Assembly (NCBI GenBank): GCA_050258655.1
Contig: JBLMZF010000121.1
Coordinates: forward strand, 1 to 45,271
DNA: 45,271 bases
Source of the DNA: Deltaproteobacteria bacterium
Lineage (GTDB): Bacteria; Omnitrophota; Gorgyraeia; Gygaellales; Profunditerraquicolaceae
Direction of reading: 5' to 3'
The notes under the pieces are model-generated. The model did not search any database. It was not told the origin of the DNA and was given only the letters and a program-made list of their open reading frames with translations. Position numbers and translations under genes: made by a program. Of the stretch, positions 1 through 25,735 are shown in pieces. How positions within the stretch are numbered: position 1 is the stretch's first letter; the number at the start of each line of letters is the position of its first letter.

Positions 1-256
1 TCTTGCTCAGCTCCTTGACAACGAACCCCTCGAGATAAGGCTTCGCCGATTCGACATCCTCGGGGTTGACCCCGTAGTTGCCGATCAGCGGGCAGGTCAT
101 CGTGACGATCTGCCCCTTGTATGAGGGATCGGTGATGACTTCCTGGTATCCGGTCAGGCTGGTGTTGAAAACGACCTCGCCGTACCGTTCGCCGGGAGCG
201 CCGAACGACTCGCCCCTGAATACCTTCCCGTCTTCTAAGACAAGCAGCGCTTTCAT
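1..256 (-). CDS. carA: Carbamoyl-phosphate synthase small (glutaminase) subunit, 5' part; runs off the window
   Basis: Not in the ORF track. Manual translation from ATG at 256 gives [62 protein letters not shown], the CarA N-terminal signature (GEVVFNT..TGYQE..TDPSY.GQI). Confidence 0.95.
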
Positions 257-289
257 AGTATGGGATTTCCTATTTAGATAAACCATATT

Positions 290-317
290 ATTATACTGTA
301 AATCGCGGCAGGGTAAA
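290..317 (-). promoter_or_regulatory. Putative sigma-70 promoter for carA
   Basis: Minus strand TTTACC-N16-TATAAT, ending about 35 nt before the carA ATG. Confidence 0.5.
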
Positions 318-341
318 GCGGGATTTACGCGGACATCCTTC

Positions 342-1970
342 TCAGGAAGTCTTATATTCGACCTTGCTTTGGGCCCTGTCAAGCGCGGCCTTGATGAAAC
401 CGGCGAACAGCGGGTGCGCCTGGTCGGGTTTTGACTTGAATTCGGGATGGAATTGGACCGCGACGAAGAACGGATGCTTCTTGAGCTCGATGATCTCGAC
501 CAGATTGCGGCGCGGGTAGATGCCGGCGAAGACCAGCCCTTTTTTCTCGAGGAGCTTGCGGTACTTGTTATTGAACTCATACCGGTGCCTGTGCCGTTCC
601 ATGATCAGCCCTTTGCGGTACAATGAAGCGGTCAGGGTGTTCTTCTTTATCTTGCACGGGTAGGCGCCCAGCCTCATCGTGCCCCCCATGTCAGTGACGT
701 CATGCTGTTCCTTGAGCAGGCAGATGATCGGGGTCTTTGCCTTGGCCTTGAACTCCGTGGAATTGCAGTCCTTAAGCCCGCAGACGTTGCGCGAGAACTC
801 GATCACCGCGCACTGCATGCCCAGGCACAGGCCCAGGAACGGTATCCTGTTCTCGCGGGCGTAGCGGATAGCCTCGATCTTGCCCTCGATGCCGCGGGAG
901 CCGAAGCCTCCCGGCACGAGCACTCCATAGACGTCCTTGAGCGCCTCCGCGGCGCCCTGGCGGAGGAGGTCCTCGGAATCTATCTTCCTGACCTCGACCC
1001 TGGTGTCGTTGCGGATGCCCGCGTGGATCAGCGCCTCCAGGATCGACTTGTAGGCGTCCTGCAGGCCGATATACTTGCCGACGAGCGCGATCGTTATCCG
1101 CTCTTTCGGGCGCAGCACCTTCTCGACCACGCCCTGCTCCCACGCCTCAAGCTGGGAGGACTTGCAGATCAGGTGAAAATGGCCGAGGATTATCTCGTCG
1201 AGGATCTGCTCCTTGAAATGGAGCGGTATCTCGTAGATGGATCTGGCGTCCATGCACTCGATGACCGATTCCTTCCTGACGTTGCAGAACAGCGATATCT
1301 TTTCCTTGAGCTCCGGCGACAGCCCCTTCTCGGCCCTGCAGATCAGGATGTCGGGCTGGATACCGATCTCGCGCAGGGTCCCGACGCTGTGCTGGGAAGG
1401 CTTGGTCTTGAGCTCGTCGGCGGTGCGGATGTAGGGCACAAGCACCAGGTGTATGAACATGACGTTGTCCTGGCCCATGTCCAGCTTGAACTGGCGCGCC
1501 GCCTCGAGGAACGGGAGCGACTCGATGTCGCCTACCGTCCCGCCTATCTCGACGATGACGATGTCCGCCCTGGAGACGTCGGCGACCTTCTTGACCCTGT
1601 CCTTTATCTCGTTGGTGATATGCGGGATGACCTGGACTGTCTTACCCAGGTAATCTCCCCGGCGCTCGCGGCTGATGACCGTGTTATAGACCACGCCGGT
1701 GGTCACGTTGTTGAAACGCGTGATCTTGGCGTTCGTGAACCTTTCGTAATGGCCAAGGTCGAGGTCCGTCTCGGCCCCGTCCTCGGTAACGTACACTTCA
1801 CCGTGCTGATAGGGGTTCATCGTGCCCGGGTCGACGTTGATGTAGGGGTCGAACTTCATGATACTGACCTTCAGACCGCGGGATTCGAGGATCTTGCCGA
1901 TGGAAGCAGAAGCGATGCCCTTGCCGAGGCTGGATATGACGCCGCCCGTTACGAAGATGAATTTGGCCAT
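342..1970 (-). CDS. pyrG: CTP synthase
   Basis: 542 aa; [37 protein letters not shown], glutaminase [15 protein letters not shown] and QFHPE motifs. Confidence 0.98.
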
Positions 1971-1981
1971 TTTTTTAGCTG

Positions 1982-23325: not shown

Positions 23326-23832
23326 CTATTGTATCTTCAGGTCAAGATACTTGCGGCACTTATCGCCGATAGTTTTCTTCATCTTGACCACCCTGACATG
23401 GGAAAGACCCACACGGGCGCCGATCTGGCGCGTGGTCAGCCCCTGCGCGAACAGCGGGAGCAGCTTCTTTTCCCGGTCGGTCAGGCCGTTGTTGCAGATC
23501 ACATCCGCCAGCATCCTGTTGTTGAGCTGCTCGATGAAATCCTCGTGGCGCGGGTCCGGCAGGTCGACGGTCTCTTCAGCGTTGTCGAGGCATAAGCGGC
23601 TGAACCGGTCCTTGCTCATCCGGATATGGTTCTGGAGATGGAAATAGCAGCCCTGGAGGATGTAGCTCTCCGTCTTGTCCGCGAACGCGCCGCTGTTGAA
23701 ATTCTTCCACAGGAAGACCACCGCCTCCTGGAACAGGTCCTCCTCATCCATCGAGGAGAATCCCCGGTTCAGCTTGTAGGCGATCGCCCTGAGCTTGGGA
23801 GTGAGCCATTTGAGGAAATCCTCGAACCCCAT
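23326..23832 (-). CDS. Small sigma-70 family factor (regions 2 and 4 only, ECF/SigH-sized)
   Basis: 168 aa; region 2 DEEDLFQEAVVFLW and region 4 LTDREKKLL...GLTTRQIGARVGLS. ATG 23832 overlaps the nadE stop (TAATG). Confidence 0.85.
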   Translation of the reverse strand: MGFEDFLKWLTPKLRAIAYKLNRGFSSMDEEDLFQEAVVFLWKNFNSGAFADKTESYILQGCYFHLQNHIRMSKDRFSRLCLDNAEETVDLPDPRHEDFIEQLNNRMLADVICNNGLTDREKKLLPLFAQGLTTRQIGARVGLSHVRVVKMKKTIGDKCRKYLDLKIQ

Positions 23833-25538
23833 TATTTGGTTTCCTTTTTCCTGAAAACGCCCGCGCATTCTGGATATTTGTTGGTGATCGGCATCCTGCG
23901 GTCCCTGCCGAACGCCTTCGGCGTGATCTTGATGCCGGGAGGAGACTGCCTTCTCTTGTATTCGCTGCGGTCGACAAGGCAGAACACCCTGCGCACGGTA
24001 TCCTCGTCGAATCCCATCTTGAGGACGTCCGAATAATGCTTGTCCTCCTCCACATTGGCCTTGAGGATGCGGTCAAGTATCCCGTACGGCGGGAGCGAAT
24101 CCGTGTCTTTCTGATTGGGCCGCAGTTCCGCGGTCGGCGCCTTCTCCATGATCCTCTGCGGAATGACCGGCTTGAGCGAGTTGCGGTAGCGGCACAGCTC
24201 GTACACCAGCATCTTGGGCACGTCCTTTATGACCGCCAGGCCTCCCGCCATGTCGCCGTAGAGCGTGGCATAGCCGACGCTCATCTCTGACTTGTTGCCG
24301 GTGGTCAGGACCAGCCACCCGAACTTGTTCGAGAACGCCATCAGTATGTTCCCCCTGATGCGCGCCTGCAGGTTCTCCTCGGTGATATCCCTCGGGCAGC
24401 CCTGGAAATGCGGCTCCAGCATCAGCAGGTAGCTCTTGAAGATGTATTCGATCGAGACGACCGAGAAATGTATGCCGAGATTATGCGCCAGCTGGCGGGC
24501 GTCCTCTTCCGATTCCCTTGAGGAATAGCGGGAAGGCATGAAAAGGGTGTTGACGTTCTCCACACCCAGCGCATCCGCCGCGAGCGTGGCGACCAGCGCC
24601 GAATCCACGCCGCCGCTCAAACCCACGACCACCTTGGAAAAACCGTTCTTGGCGACATAATCCCTCAACCCCAGGCAAAGCGCGTCGTACACCTCTTCTT
24701 CCTTGCCCGGCCGGATGATCTCGTGCTTCGGCAGGGGCTCCCTTTGCTGGACAGGGTTGCCGTGGACTTTGACACTGCGGCGGGGGATCGCGGTGGACTG
24801 CTTGACCGGCAGGTCCACGCAGAAAAGCTCTTCCTTGAACGCGGCCCCGCGGGCAAGGACTTCGCCTTTGGCATCCACGACCAGGCTCTGGCCGTCGAAG
24901 ACCAGCTCATCCTGGCCGCCCACCAGATTCAGATAGACCATCGGGATGCCGAGCTTGCGCGCCCTGGCGCGCACGTATTCTTCACGCTCGACCCCTCTTC
25001 CCGCGTAGTAAGGGGAAGCGTTGATAGTCACGATGGCCCGGGCTCCTCCCTTCACTTCCGCGGTAAGTGGACCGGGCTGCCAGATATCCTCGCAGATGGT
25101 CACCCCGAAACAGCATTTGTCCATCGCGCAGAGGAGCGGCTCGGTCCCGCCCTCGAAATACCGTTTTTCGTCAAAGACCCCGTAATTGGGCAGGCAGACC
25201 TTGTGGTAGACCGCCCTGATCTTCCCGGAATCGATGACGGCCGCCGCATTGTACAGTTTTCCGCCCTGGCTGTCGACAAAACCCACGATCGCGGTGATGC
25301 CCTCGATATCTTTCGCGAGCTCGCGGACCCGCTCGAGGTTGTCCAGGACGAACGAGGGCTTAAGCAGCAGGTCCTCAGGAGGATAGCCGGTGAGCGCAAG
25401 CTCCGGGAAAAGGACAATATCAGCCCCCTGCTCCCTGGCCAGGTCCTTGAAGCGCAGGACCTTCTCCGCGTTGCCGGCGAGGTCGCCGACCCTGCAGTCG
25501 ATCTGCGCGCATGCTATCCTGAGTATCGAATCCGCCAT
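23832..25538 (-). CDS. nadE: Glutamine-dependent NAD+ synthetase
   Basis: Nitrilase-fold domain with the E-K-C triad (FPEL, YHK, ICEDIW) fused to a synthetase domain (GLSGGVDS, ENLQARIRG, TGNKSE, TLYGD, SEYKRRQ). Confidence 0.96.
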   Translation of the reverse strand: MADSILRIACAQIDCRVGDLAGNAEKVLRFKDLAREQGADIVLFPELALTGYPPEDLLLKPSFVLDNLERVRELAKDIEGITAIVGFVDSQGGKLYNAAAVIDSGKIRAVYHKVCLPNYGVFDEKRYFEGGTEPLLCAMDKCCFGVTICEDIWQPGPLTAEVKGGARAIVTINASPYYAGRGVEREEYVRARARKLGIPMVYLNLVGGQDELVFDGQSLVVDAKGEVLARGAAFKEELFCVDLPVKQSTAIPRRSVKVHGNPVQQREPLPKHEIIRPGKEEEVYDALCLGLRDYVAKNGFSKVVVGLSGGVDSALVATLAADALGVENVNTLFMPSRYSSRESEEDARQLAHNLGIHFSVVSIEYIFKSYLLMLEPHFQGCPRDITEENLQARIRGNILMAFSNKFGWLVLTTGNKSEMSVGYATLYGDMAGGLAVIKDVPKMLVYELCRYRNSLKPVIPQRIMEKAPTAELRPNQKDTDSLPPYGILDRILKANVEEDKHYSDVLKMGFDEDTVRRVFCLVDRSEYKRRQSPPGIKITPKAFGRDRRMPITNKYPECAGVFRKKETK

Positions 25539-25595
25539 AGTGTCCGTATACCCCGCACTTGCGGGGAATTGCGCGGGTATGCGCCCGTGCGCAAA

Positions 25596-25692
25596 TAAAA
25601 AAACGTCCTTATATACATTATACAGCCGATGTATTCAGGACGTCTTTATCCCCAAAAAAAACGTTCGCCGTCACTGGCGAACGTCATTGTTC
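25596..25692 (-). promoter_or_regulatory. nadE-sigma leader: two tandem ANTAR-hairpin/terminator modules
   Basis: GAAC-AATGAC-GTTC (25692-25679) overlaps GACGTTCGCC/GGCGAACGTT plus a T-run. GGAT-AAAGAC-GTCC (25651-25638) overlaps GACGTCCT...AGGACGTT plus a T-run. Confidence 0.8.
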
Positions 25693-25707
25693 CCTCTTTC
25701 GCTTATA

Positions 25708-25735
25708 AGTATACCATTCCATGGCGGTTTGTCAA
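25708..25735 (-). promoter_or_regulatory. Sigma-70 promoter for nadE-sigma
   Basis: TTGACA-N16-TATACT with an extended -10 TG. Confidence 0.8.

Follow-up and report, generated by a model that had tools for sequence, protein, structure and literature searches.

The window analysed here is the whole of contig JBLMZF010000121.1 (45,271 nucleotides; assembly GCA_050258655.1), designated C121 in a 2.09-Mb, 160-contig metagenome-assembled genome (MAG) of Candidatus Omnitrophota with a completeness of 91%. It carries on its minus strand genes for ammonium uptake and assimilation, RNA leaders which fold as attenuators, a gene for a small sigma factor and a bipartite, promoter-like motif; together these point to a two-tier nitrogen circuit in which ANTAR-type antitermination would gate the sigma factor as well as its targets. 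Gene identities were assigned from Pfam and NCBIfam profile matches, and the locus was compared with 41 related genomes, with 80 species-level loci around orthologues of the sigma gene and with 20 long contexts. The genes concerned are as follows.

23832-25538 (-): nadE, glutamine-dependent NAD synthetase, the stop codon of which overlaps the sigma start (TAATG)
23326-23832 (-): sigma70-family, extracytoplasmic function (ECF)-like sigma gene, 168 amino acids (TIGR02937)
22307-23113 (-): signal-peptide outer-membrane 'porin', no family match, kept before amtB in relatives
21058-22284 (-): amtB, ammonium transporter
20660-21001 (-): glnK (PII)
11046-11504: PtsN-like EIIA gene, adjoining glnA
8680-10875 (-): glnA, type III glutamine synthetase (GSIII)
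8129-8491 (-): HTH_8-only protein of 120 amino acids (Fis/NtrC C-terminal type; Pfam)
3555-8144 (-): gltB
2129-3553 (-): gltD (gltB-gltD glutamate synthase, 2129-8144)
342-1970 (-): pyrG, CTP synthase (glutamine amidotransferase)
First in map order (-): carA, partial

An earlier note on this DNA had described a 25-kb nitrogen block. The gene identities which it gave were confirmed, but about 9.5 kb of the block is unrelated to nitrogen, because positions 11046-20497 are filled by the PtsN-like EIIA gene, a Usp gene and a complete nine-gene V-type ATPase operon.

Leader attenuators and ANTAR proteins

Five leaders had been claimed in the same note to be attenuators, and four of them (nadE-sigma, porin-amtB-glnK, glnA and pyrG) were retained, with two, two, one and one modules respectively, giving six in the window. 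The small hairpins are termed P1 and P2; folds were compared with those of shuffled sequences (z-scores), and the E-values of the covariance models are rough because calibration was shortened.

25653-25692 (-): nadE leader module A, GAAC-[AATGAC]-GTTC overlapping the terminator ACGTTCGCC/GGCGAACGT with U8 (z -3.23; covariance-model scores 27 and 30.7 bits)
25597-25651 (-): nadE leader module B, GGAT-[AAAGAC]-GTCC, an inner hairpin and a terminator 3' arm AGGACGT with U7 (z -3.33; weak model match, 15.3 bits, E 3.7)
23223-23283 (-): porin leader module 1, P1 (7-nt loop AGUGAUA) and a strong terminator with the conserved 5' arm GCGTTCTC (z -5.98; 40.9 and 43.6 bits)
23138-23196 (-): porin leader module 2, AAGAC-[GCAGGC]-GTCTT, a second hairpin and a terminator which borrows the 3' half of the first hairpin (z -2.06; 17.1 bits, E 0.49)
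10906-10987 (-): glnA leader attenuator, P1 GCAC-[GCGGAU]-GUGC, an extra hairpin and P2 AGAAC-[AGAGGC]-GUUCU, which overlaps a 22-bp terminator (z -6.49; 32.3 and 47 bits)
1982-2064 (-): pyrG leader attenuator, P1 GGUUC-[AAUGAC]-GAACC and P2 AAAC-[AACGGC]-GUUU, which overlaps the terminator GGCGUUUCC/GGAAACGC (z -4.44; weak model match, 18.9 bits, E 0.6)

The fifth leader, that of HTH_8/gltB, contains one A1/G4 hexaloop hairpin without a convincing terminator; it was not counted as an attenuator because its fold was no better than shuffles (z -0.47) and neither covariance model matched it. No attenuator was found at carA, the promoter region of which is of the plain TATAAT type.

A seed alignment of 47 leaders was made with MAFFT, in which pairing reached 96% in P1 and 98% in the terminator and compensatory changes were seen; changes on both sides of a pair were more numerous than in all 500 shuffles. 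A covariance model was built on P1 and the terminator (the alignment being fitted to the terminator and not to P2) and gave 111 matches at E<=0.01 from 87 sources. Among these matches, position 1 of the P1 loop was A in 78 of 102 cases, G in 22 and T in 2, with G at position 4 in 98 of 100. In the P2 loop, A occupied position 1 in 91 of 110 matches and G occupied position 4 in 102 of 111, and pairing at the three inner positions of P2 was found in 102, 105 and 87 of the 110 cells. In relatives, P1 is typically (G)CAC-ATTGAA-GTG(Y) followed by a short linker, and P2 is (G)AAC-ANNGGC-GTT(C), the 3' half of which is contained in the terminator 5' arm GGCGTTC(T). This overlap was also seen in alignment A3, where columns 61-65 (the P2 3' arm) fall within columns 58-66 (the terminator 5' arm; terminator 97% paired, 7 covarying pairs). 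Since P2 uses the terminator 5' arm, the P2 hairpin and the terminator would be mutually exclusive. The P2 arms co-vary across module classes (AAC/GTT, GAAC/GTTC, AAGAC/GTCTT, GGAC/GTCC and AAAC/GTTT), and the terminator 3' arm follows each. By rule-based counting, 50 of 78 loci had one module or more in the 350 nt before the sigma gene (reverse-complement control, 4 of 78) and 60 of 77 had one or more in the 400 nt after it (control, 3 of 77), with a figure of 7 of 65 within the amtB coding sequence.

According to Ramesh et al. 2012 (PMC3369931), the RNA substrates of ANTAR proteins are paired small stem-loops with hexanucleotide loops in which A1 and G4 are conserved, overlapping an intrinsic terminator, and such RNAs lie upstream of genes for PII, ammonium transporters and glutamine/glutamate synthase in many bacteria. 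The predicted folds of the present leaders fit this design, with two A1/G4 hexaloop hairpins of which the second overlaps the terminator. No ANTAR gene lies in the window, as had been noted; two were found elsewhere in the genome, on contigs C54 and C22, both encoding GAF-ANTAR proteins without a REC domain (about 235-245 amino acids, 55% identical to one another). The gene on C54 is followed by a Glu_synthase-family gene, and that on C22 comes after a class I/II aminotransferase gene. ANTAR domains were present in 35 of the 41 relatives, including 19 of the 21 high-quality ones, and in 34 of 80 loci the sigma gene has a GAF-ANTAR gene no more than 3 kb upstream on the same strand (this count, and those given below for the motif and for amtB after the sigma gene, were read by eye from tables). 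A predicted complex between the ANTAR protein's GAF domain and a GlnK trimer scored 0.00, which speaks neither for nor against binding.

Modules were also located elsewhere in the genome. Two lie behind a TTGACA-N17-TACACT promoter before the GAF-ANTAR gene on C54, and an operon on the same contig (C54, 4401-8051; L138) with nfnA/pyrK-like, gltD-like and gdhA genes stands behind TTGACA-N17-TACATT and one module (22.6 bits). In the kdpFA leader (C21, 60-160; L139), a P2 and terminator module (25.7 and 28.9 bits) follows a near-match to the bipartite motif described below (TTGCC-N17-ACTTGAT), and the exact motif was found before kdpA (Pfam-confirmed) in relative G020 (L143); K+ uptake may, from these sequences, be part of the same regulon.

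Two further model matches were judged to be chance, one being the terminator after a cold-shock gene (C20, 8164-8216; E 5) and the other lying on C62 (E 8). A terminator-like element (TAAGGC-GTCC ... GGACGCC-U6) between an extended -10 promoter and the 16S rRNA gene on C82 (49996-50050, +) resembles the second module of sigma leaders and may be a chance match (17.5 bits, E ~1). Three home-made hairpin/terminator scanners proved too permissive (222 matches, 5113 'terminators' and 3891 matches) and were replaced by the covariance models; they carry no evidential weight, apart from having drawn attention to the module in front of the C54 GAF-ANTAR gene.

The sigma factor and its neighbouring motif

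Two kinds of promoter-like sequence were located upstream of the genes listed above.

25708-25735 (-): sigma70-type promoter of nadE-sigma, TTGACA-N16-TATACT, with TG before the -10 and 11/12 consensus matches
2074-2102 (-): sigma70-type promoter of pyrG, TTGACA-N17-TATACT
23290-23319 (-): bipartite motif GTTACCA-N15-TTACTTGTA upstream of porin-amtB-glnK, lineage-specific and promoter-like
11009-11038 (-): second copy of the bipartite motif, upstream of GSIII glnA

Housekeeping promoters for nadE-sigma and pyrG, and a different bipartite motif shared by glnA and porin-amtB-glnK, had both been proposed in the earlier note and were found as described, the motif copies running from 11038 to 11009 and from 23319 to 23290. 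In the window the motif reads TGTTACCAG, 11 bases, GGTTACTTGTA, and these two copies, before porin-amtB-glnK and GSIII glnA, are the only ones in the 2.09-Mb genome.

The motif was also conserved near orthologues. Its core (TTACC-N17-ACTTGTA) lies at most 400 nt past the sigma stop codon in 75 of the 80 species-level loci and starts 5-40 nt after that codon in most of the 75; in one of the five negative loci the contig ends 76 nt past the sigma gene. The amtB gene comes after the sigma gene in at least 67 of the 80 loci, and porin/amtB/glnK lie downstream of it in 16 of the 20 long contexts. The consensus from 93 distinct sites was GTTACCA-(g/a)-N9-tTtTTT-ACTTGTA with an invariant 17-nt spacing, and bases beyond the search pattern were also conserved, namely G-1 before TTACC (92/93), A+6 after TTACC (91/93) and the T directly before ACTTGTA (92/93). 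The exact motif gave 60 matches in 26 of the 41 related genomes, and a reversed-pattern control gave 1. Twenty further sites distant from the sigma gene were inspected in relatives, of which 17 precede nitrogen-related genes: GSIII glnA (5), GSI (2, Pfam-confirmed), weaker glutamine synthetase-family matches (2), amtB (3), a glnK-like gene (1), HTH_8-gltB (3) and a class-I glutamine amidotransferase (1); the others precede kdpA (1) and unidentified genes (2). In relatives gltBD stands behind the motif and an attenuator; in the window it has neither.

With two blocks at fixed spacing directly 5' of a structured leader, the motif has the form of a promoter. It is unlike the housekeeping promoters of the lineage, which are textbook TTGACA/TATAAT, and unlike a sigma54 promoter, and no sigma70-like -10 hexamer was found at a usable distance downstream of it. 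It also holds a TTAC direct repeat, 20 bp apart.

The sigma gene has an ATG start which overlaps the nadE stop and encodes 168 amino acids with sigma2 and sigma4 domains only. The protein matched TIGR02937 (sigma70-ECF superfamily) with 45.9 bits against a cut-off of 42.9 (residues 15-175). An AlphaFold model from 16 orthologues (predicted local distance difference test score, pLDDT, 80.3) consisted of two helical domains and a disordered linker, and its best PDB matches were sigma factors, mostly of the ECF group (SigL, SigH, SigK, SigW, RpoE and AlgU) but also of group 3; region-2-like and region-4-like blocks are conserved among the orthologues. The family comprises 653 clusters at 90% identity, the named members of which are annotated as sigma-70 family sigma factor, and the closest public relatives are nearly all from Candidatus Omnitrophota/Omnitrophica MAGs. 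The gene was detected in 25 of the 41 related genomes; it has nadE or GAF-ANTAR upstream, porin/amtB downstream and no anti-sigma gene beside it. The genome encodes five other sigma70-family sigma factors in addition to rpoN. The sigma gene carries no motif copy of its own upstream (autoregulation was not seen), and its promoter is sigma70-type: TTGACA-N16-18-TAnnnT was found upstream in 55 of 78 loci which, together with the upstream modules (50 of 78 against 4 of 78), agrees with the feed-forward cascade that had been suggested for this locus.

We infer that the 168-amino-acid sigma would read the neighbouring motif because the two are adjacent, co-occur and have been lost together in two natural 'deletions'. 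In the window's family the motif was present in 18 of 18 genomes with the sigma gene and in 2 of 7 without a detected one, both of the latter being less than 75% complete. Neither the sigma gene nor the motif was found in G021 (L160; 96% complete), where TTGACA-N17-TATACT and hairpin/terminator modules directly drive porin-amtB-glnK-glnA3. In G024 (L161; 94% complete) the motif is gone, and what seems to be a deletion scar, a sigma remnant with the most conserved (region-2) peptide, is left between nadE and amtB.

Two minor observations concern these promoters. Three distant genomes have ACTTATA, ACTTAAT or ACTTTTA as the -10-like block, along with an altered region-2-like block in the sigma, an anecdotal finding. 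In many relatives an extended -10 housekeeping promoter (TGTGGTAAAAT or similar) follows the glnA3 leader terminator (e.g. L031 ~8230, L034 ~10340 and L037 ~9520), and its sequence suggests basal glnA expression bypassing the sigma/ANTAR gate; the glnA of the window is without one.

A candidate two-tier circuit and its alternatives

It is probable, in our judgement, that these elements make up a two-tier nitrogen-assimilation circuit typical of Omnitrophota, in which ANTAR attenuators gate the sigma factor, and sigma and ANTAR together drive the targets. The proposed order (ANTAR releases the sigma; sigma and ANTAR release amtB and glnA) is based on the presence of ANTAR proteins, the conservation of the motif and the promoter and attenuators of the sigma gene. 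The checks on sequence by which the earlier note could have been refuted, namely a search for ANTAR proteins and for conservation of the promoter and RNA motifs at orthologues, all favoured it. In the first tier, housekeeping sigma70-type promoters would drive nadE-sigma, pyrG, the GAF-ANTAR gene and the nfnA-like/gltD-like/gdhA operon, and each transcript would meet one or two intrinsic terminators in its leader and stop unless antiterminated. One or two short A1/G4-loop hairpins would form just 5' of each terminator; when the GAF domain senses nitrogen limitation, the GAF-ANTAR protein would bind and stabilise them, and RNA polymerase would read through. In the second tier, read-through would yield the 168-amino-acid sigma, which would direct RNA polymerase to GTTACCA-N15-TTACTTGTA and so open the amtB and glnA promoters; in relatives it would do the same at gltBD, GSI, second amtB copies and kdp. 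The transcripts of this tier carry ANTAR-type attenuators again and would therefore need both sigma and antiterminator; the resulting logic would be a coherent feed-forward loop with an AND gate, to which the attenuators before the GAF-ANTAR gene would add positive autoregulation. We infer the transcription starts, the recognition of the motif by the sigma, the binding of RNA by ANTAR, the sign of the response and the ligand from sequence.

A number of observations count against this circuit. The related MAGs which were compared are non-independent samples. On the RNA side, no Rfam family, the glutamine riboswitch included, was matched in the window at gathering thresholds; module A of the nadE leader has no clear upstream P1, and the loops of both small hairpins of porin module 1 in the window are of 7 nt and not of 6. 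In relatives, P1 is missing from several glnA3 leaders, and P2 then starts 6-7 nt past the motif. Loop position 1 is U, and not A or G, in many second modules of sigma leaders (with U allowed at this position, an upstream module was found in 63 of 78 loci; reverse-complement control, 6 of 78). P2 is usually 3 bp long and near-invariant within a module class (its third pair is GC in 6 cases and AU in 61), so that direct P2 covariation is modest. The gdhA gene is usually repressed under nitrogen limitation. As it too sits behind an attenuator, which would be unexpected if attenuators only activate under nitrogen limitation, the sign of control may differ between targets. On the side of the sigma factor, Pfam Sigma70_r2 (14.5 bits) and Sigma70_r4 (16.4 bits) matched the 168-amino-acid protein below their cut-offs, and the genome encodes three more ECF-sized sigmas, a group-3-like sigma and sigma54, each of which could in principle read the motif. 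ECF promoters carry an AAC/CGT signature, which GTTACCA/ACTTGTA lacks.

The metatranscriptomes bear on the presence of the organism only. In soil run X1, 85% of the sampled words of 20600-25800 were present, and contigs of this run matched 8000-26000 at 95-100% identity with every bin at similar depth and the intergenic regions bridged; runs X2 and X3 gave no matches to the locus. The organism or a close strain was thus present in the X1 sample, since its contigs match the whole stretch at 95-100%. As a further point against the circuit, the only RNA library with the locus consists of evenly covered contigs, in which starts, ends and strand are not readable; X1 gives no conclusion on expression because the contigs hide these and DNA carry-over is possible.

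It was considered whether the attenuators might be ANTAR-controlled while the motif is read by another sigma or by a DNA-binding activator such as the HTH_8-only protein, the neighbouring sigma serving a different regulon. Candidates exist in the form of the three ECF-sized and one group-3-like sigma genes and of the HTH_8 gene, which is conserved within the same gene island; the TTAC direct repeat could suit a dimeric activator, and the motif is unlike the ECF consensus. Against this stand the short gap of 5-40 nt that separates the motif from the sigma stop in most of the 75 positive loci, the joint occurrence of sigma and motif in 18/18 family members with both missing in two high-quality genomes, and the lack of a usable sigma70-like -10 downstream of the motif in a lineage whose housekeeping promoters are textbook TTGACA/TATAAT, and we regard this alternative as unlikely. 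It is somewhat less likely again that the modules, while real attenuators, are run by an agent other than ANTAR, i.e. a metabolite-binding RNA (for glutamine, for example), another RNA-binding protein or NTP (nucleoside triphosphate)-sensitive reiterative transcription. NTP-sensitive reiterative transcription operates at pyrG in Bacillus, and pyrG leaders with terminators in Firmicutes are regulated differently, which favours such an agent, as do those modules that lack P1 or have non-canonical loops. The hairpins are, however, too small for a ligand pocket, no glutamine riboswitch or other Rfam family was found in the window, and GAF-ANTAR genes are syntenic with modules in 34/80 loci, one such gene being itself preceded by modules. 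The consensus also reproduces each defining feature of ANTAR targets given by Ramesh et al. 2012 (PMC3369931).

The ANTAR/sigma circuit had been put forward in the earlier note as standing in place of sigma54/NtrC, with the only NtrC-like gene lacking an AAA+ domain. The latter statement is true of the window, but a full REC-AAA+-HTH_8 activator is encoded on contig C18 together with a GAF-histidine kinase, about 3 kb from rpoN. Sigma54 and this single NtrC-family activator could thus still be the main nitrogen control in this genome, with sigma/ANTAR as accessory fine-tuning; we hold this to be very improbable, and the least probable of the three alternatives. The activator gene adjoins a PMT_2 glycosyltransferase gene and not nitrogen genes, and the three other Sigma54_activat matches in the genome are weak and lie in long proteins. 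A scan of the window for -24/-12 elements (<=2 mismatches) gave 14 matches where 16 were expected by chance, none of them at glnA, amtB, nadE or pyrG. Strong rpoN matches were obtained in only about 10 of the 41 relatives, and rpoN was not found in G011, G013, G023, G026 and G031 (MAGs 91-96% complete), which keep the sigma-amtB locus with its promoter and leader architecture; a MAG can, however, never prove a gene absent. The phrase 'in place of' therefore needs qualifying, because rpoN and one NtrC-family activator are present in the genome: it is partly right, applying on sequence grounds to these promoters and to most relatives and not to the whole genome.

The two-tier circuit resembles the NtrBC/sigma54 system of Proteobacteria in its targets (glnA, amtB-glnK and gltBD) and in having a dedicated alternative sigma; it differs in that the sigma belongs to the sigma70 family, there is no enhancer-binding ATPase or -24/-12 promoter, and a post-initiation checkpoint would be added. 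Some ECF sigmas, such as those of the HrpL type, are controlled via their own transcription and not by an anti-sigma. The present sigma is likewise a small two-domain protein without a neighbouring anti-sigma, the activity of which is presumably set by the amount made; here, though, control would be by leader attenuation and not by an activator, the regulon would be central nitrogen assimilation, and GTTACCA/ACTTGTA does not match ECF motifs.

In comparison with the ANTAR regulons of EutV, NasR and AmiR as described in PMC3369931, the hairpin pair, the A1/G4 loops, the competition of the second hairpin with the terminator and the nitrogen targets are shared, while the sensor here is GAF and not REC, NIT or pseudo-REC, the modules often occur two in tandem, a sigma factor gene is among the targets and many modules stand behind a promoter that is not of the housekeeping type. 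Among described systems, the cascade of Geobacter sulfurreducens (GnfL/GnfM and GnfK/GnfR) comes closest; in it, according to Ueki and Lovley 2010 (PMC2995071), an enhancer-binding master induces an ANTAR two-component system which then antiterminates a subset of the master's targets. Both have two tiers with an initiation regulator and an ANTAR protein acting on the same genes, terminators in promoter regions and one tier controlling the expression of the other. The order here would be reversed, with ANTAR attenuators gating a sigma70-family sigma; the ANTAR protein is a one-component GAF protein and not a phosphorylated response regulator; and the promoter of the GAF-ANTAR gene on C54 is sigma70-type, with no sigma54 promoter at these genes.

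On balance we lean, with less assurance than for the circuit itself, towards a broader statement, that Omnitrophota run central nitrogen assimilation without regulators of the NtrC/sigma54, GlnR, NtcA or TnrA type, a GAF-ANTAR sensor gating an ECF-like sigma without anti-sigma as well as its targets. The wiring from nitrogen status to expression is known for a handful of phyla, each with a different master regulator, and Omnitrophota are widespread, uncultured bacteria with small genomes. No regulatory circuit was described for them in the literature searched (a search with subscription journals and supplementary files outside its scope), nor did it hold anything on point regarding an ECF sigma with amtB/glnA under nitrogen limitation, the classification of Omnitrophica ECF sigmas or GAF-ANTAR with 2-oxoglutarate. 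If the broader statement is true, it would provide the first sigma70-family sigma dedicated to ammonium assimilation and the first sigma factor with production set by ANTAR antitermination. The circuit would also give a first physiological role to the common, uncharacterised GAF-ANTAR architecture. The wiring itself would be new, an RNA-level switch upstream of a sigma factor being repeated downstream of it, and would form a feed-forward AND gate with sensor autoregulation, possibly reaching K+ uptake (kdp). The hypothesis is compact, with a single sensor protein, sigma, promoter motif and RNA motif, and lends itself to reconstruction in E. coli with no need to culture the organism; both motifs can already serve for annotating the nitrogen regulons of hundreds of Omnitrophota MAGs.

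Other genes and elements of the window

Most relatives keep the HTH_8-only gene in its place between glnA3 and gltB, and some have it as the first gene of a gltBD operon preceded by the promoter motif; judged by its sequence, the protein could be a DNA-binding partner in the circuit. An identical G+C-rich hairpin (GGGGACGGG ... CCCGTCCCC) without a U-run was found after both glnA (8638-8669, -) and glnK (20622-20650, -), and could represent a repeated element or a terminator lacking the U-run.

The remaining genes of the window, which have no role in the circuit, include an amino-acid permease, ExbBD, HydF/HydG-type maturases, aspartase and others. Those at 36440-41022 (-) encode HydF, an aspartate ammonia-lyase/fumarase-family protein, a HydG-like radical SAM protein and a TM1266-like regulator, and this is an [FeFe]-hydrogenase maturation cluster.

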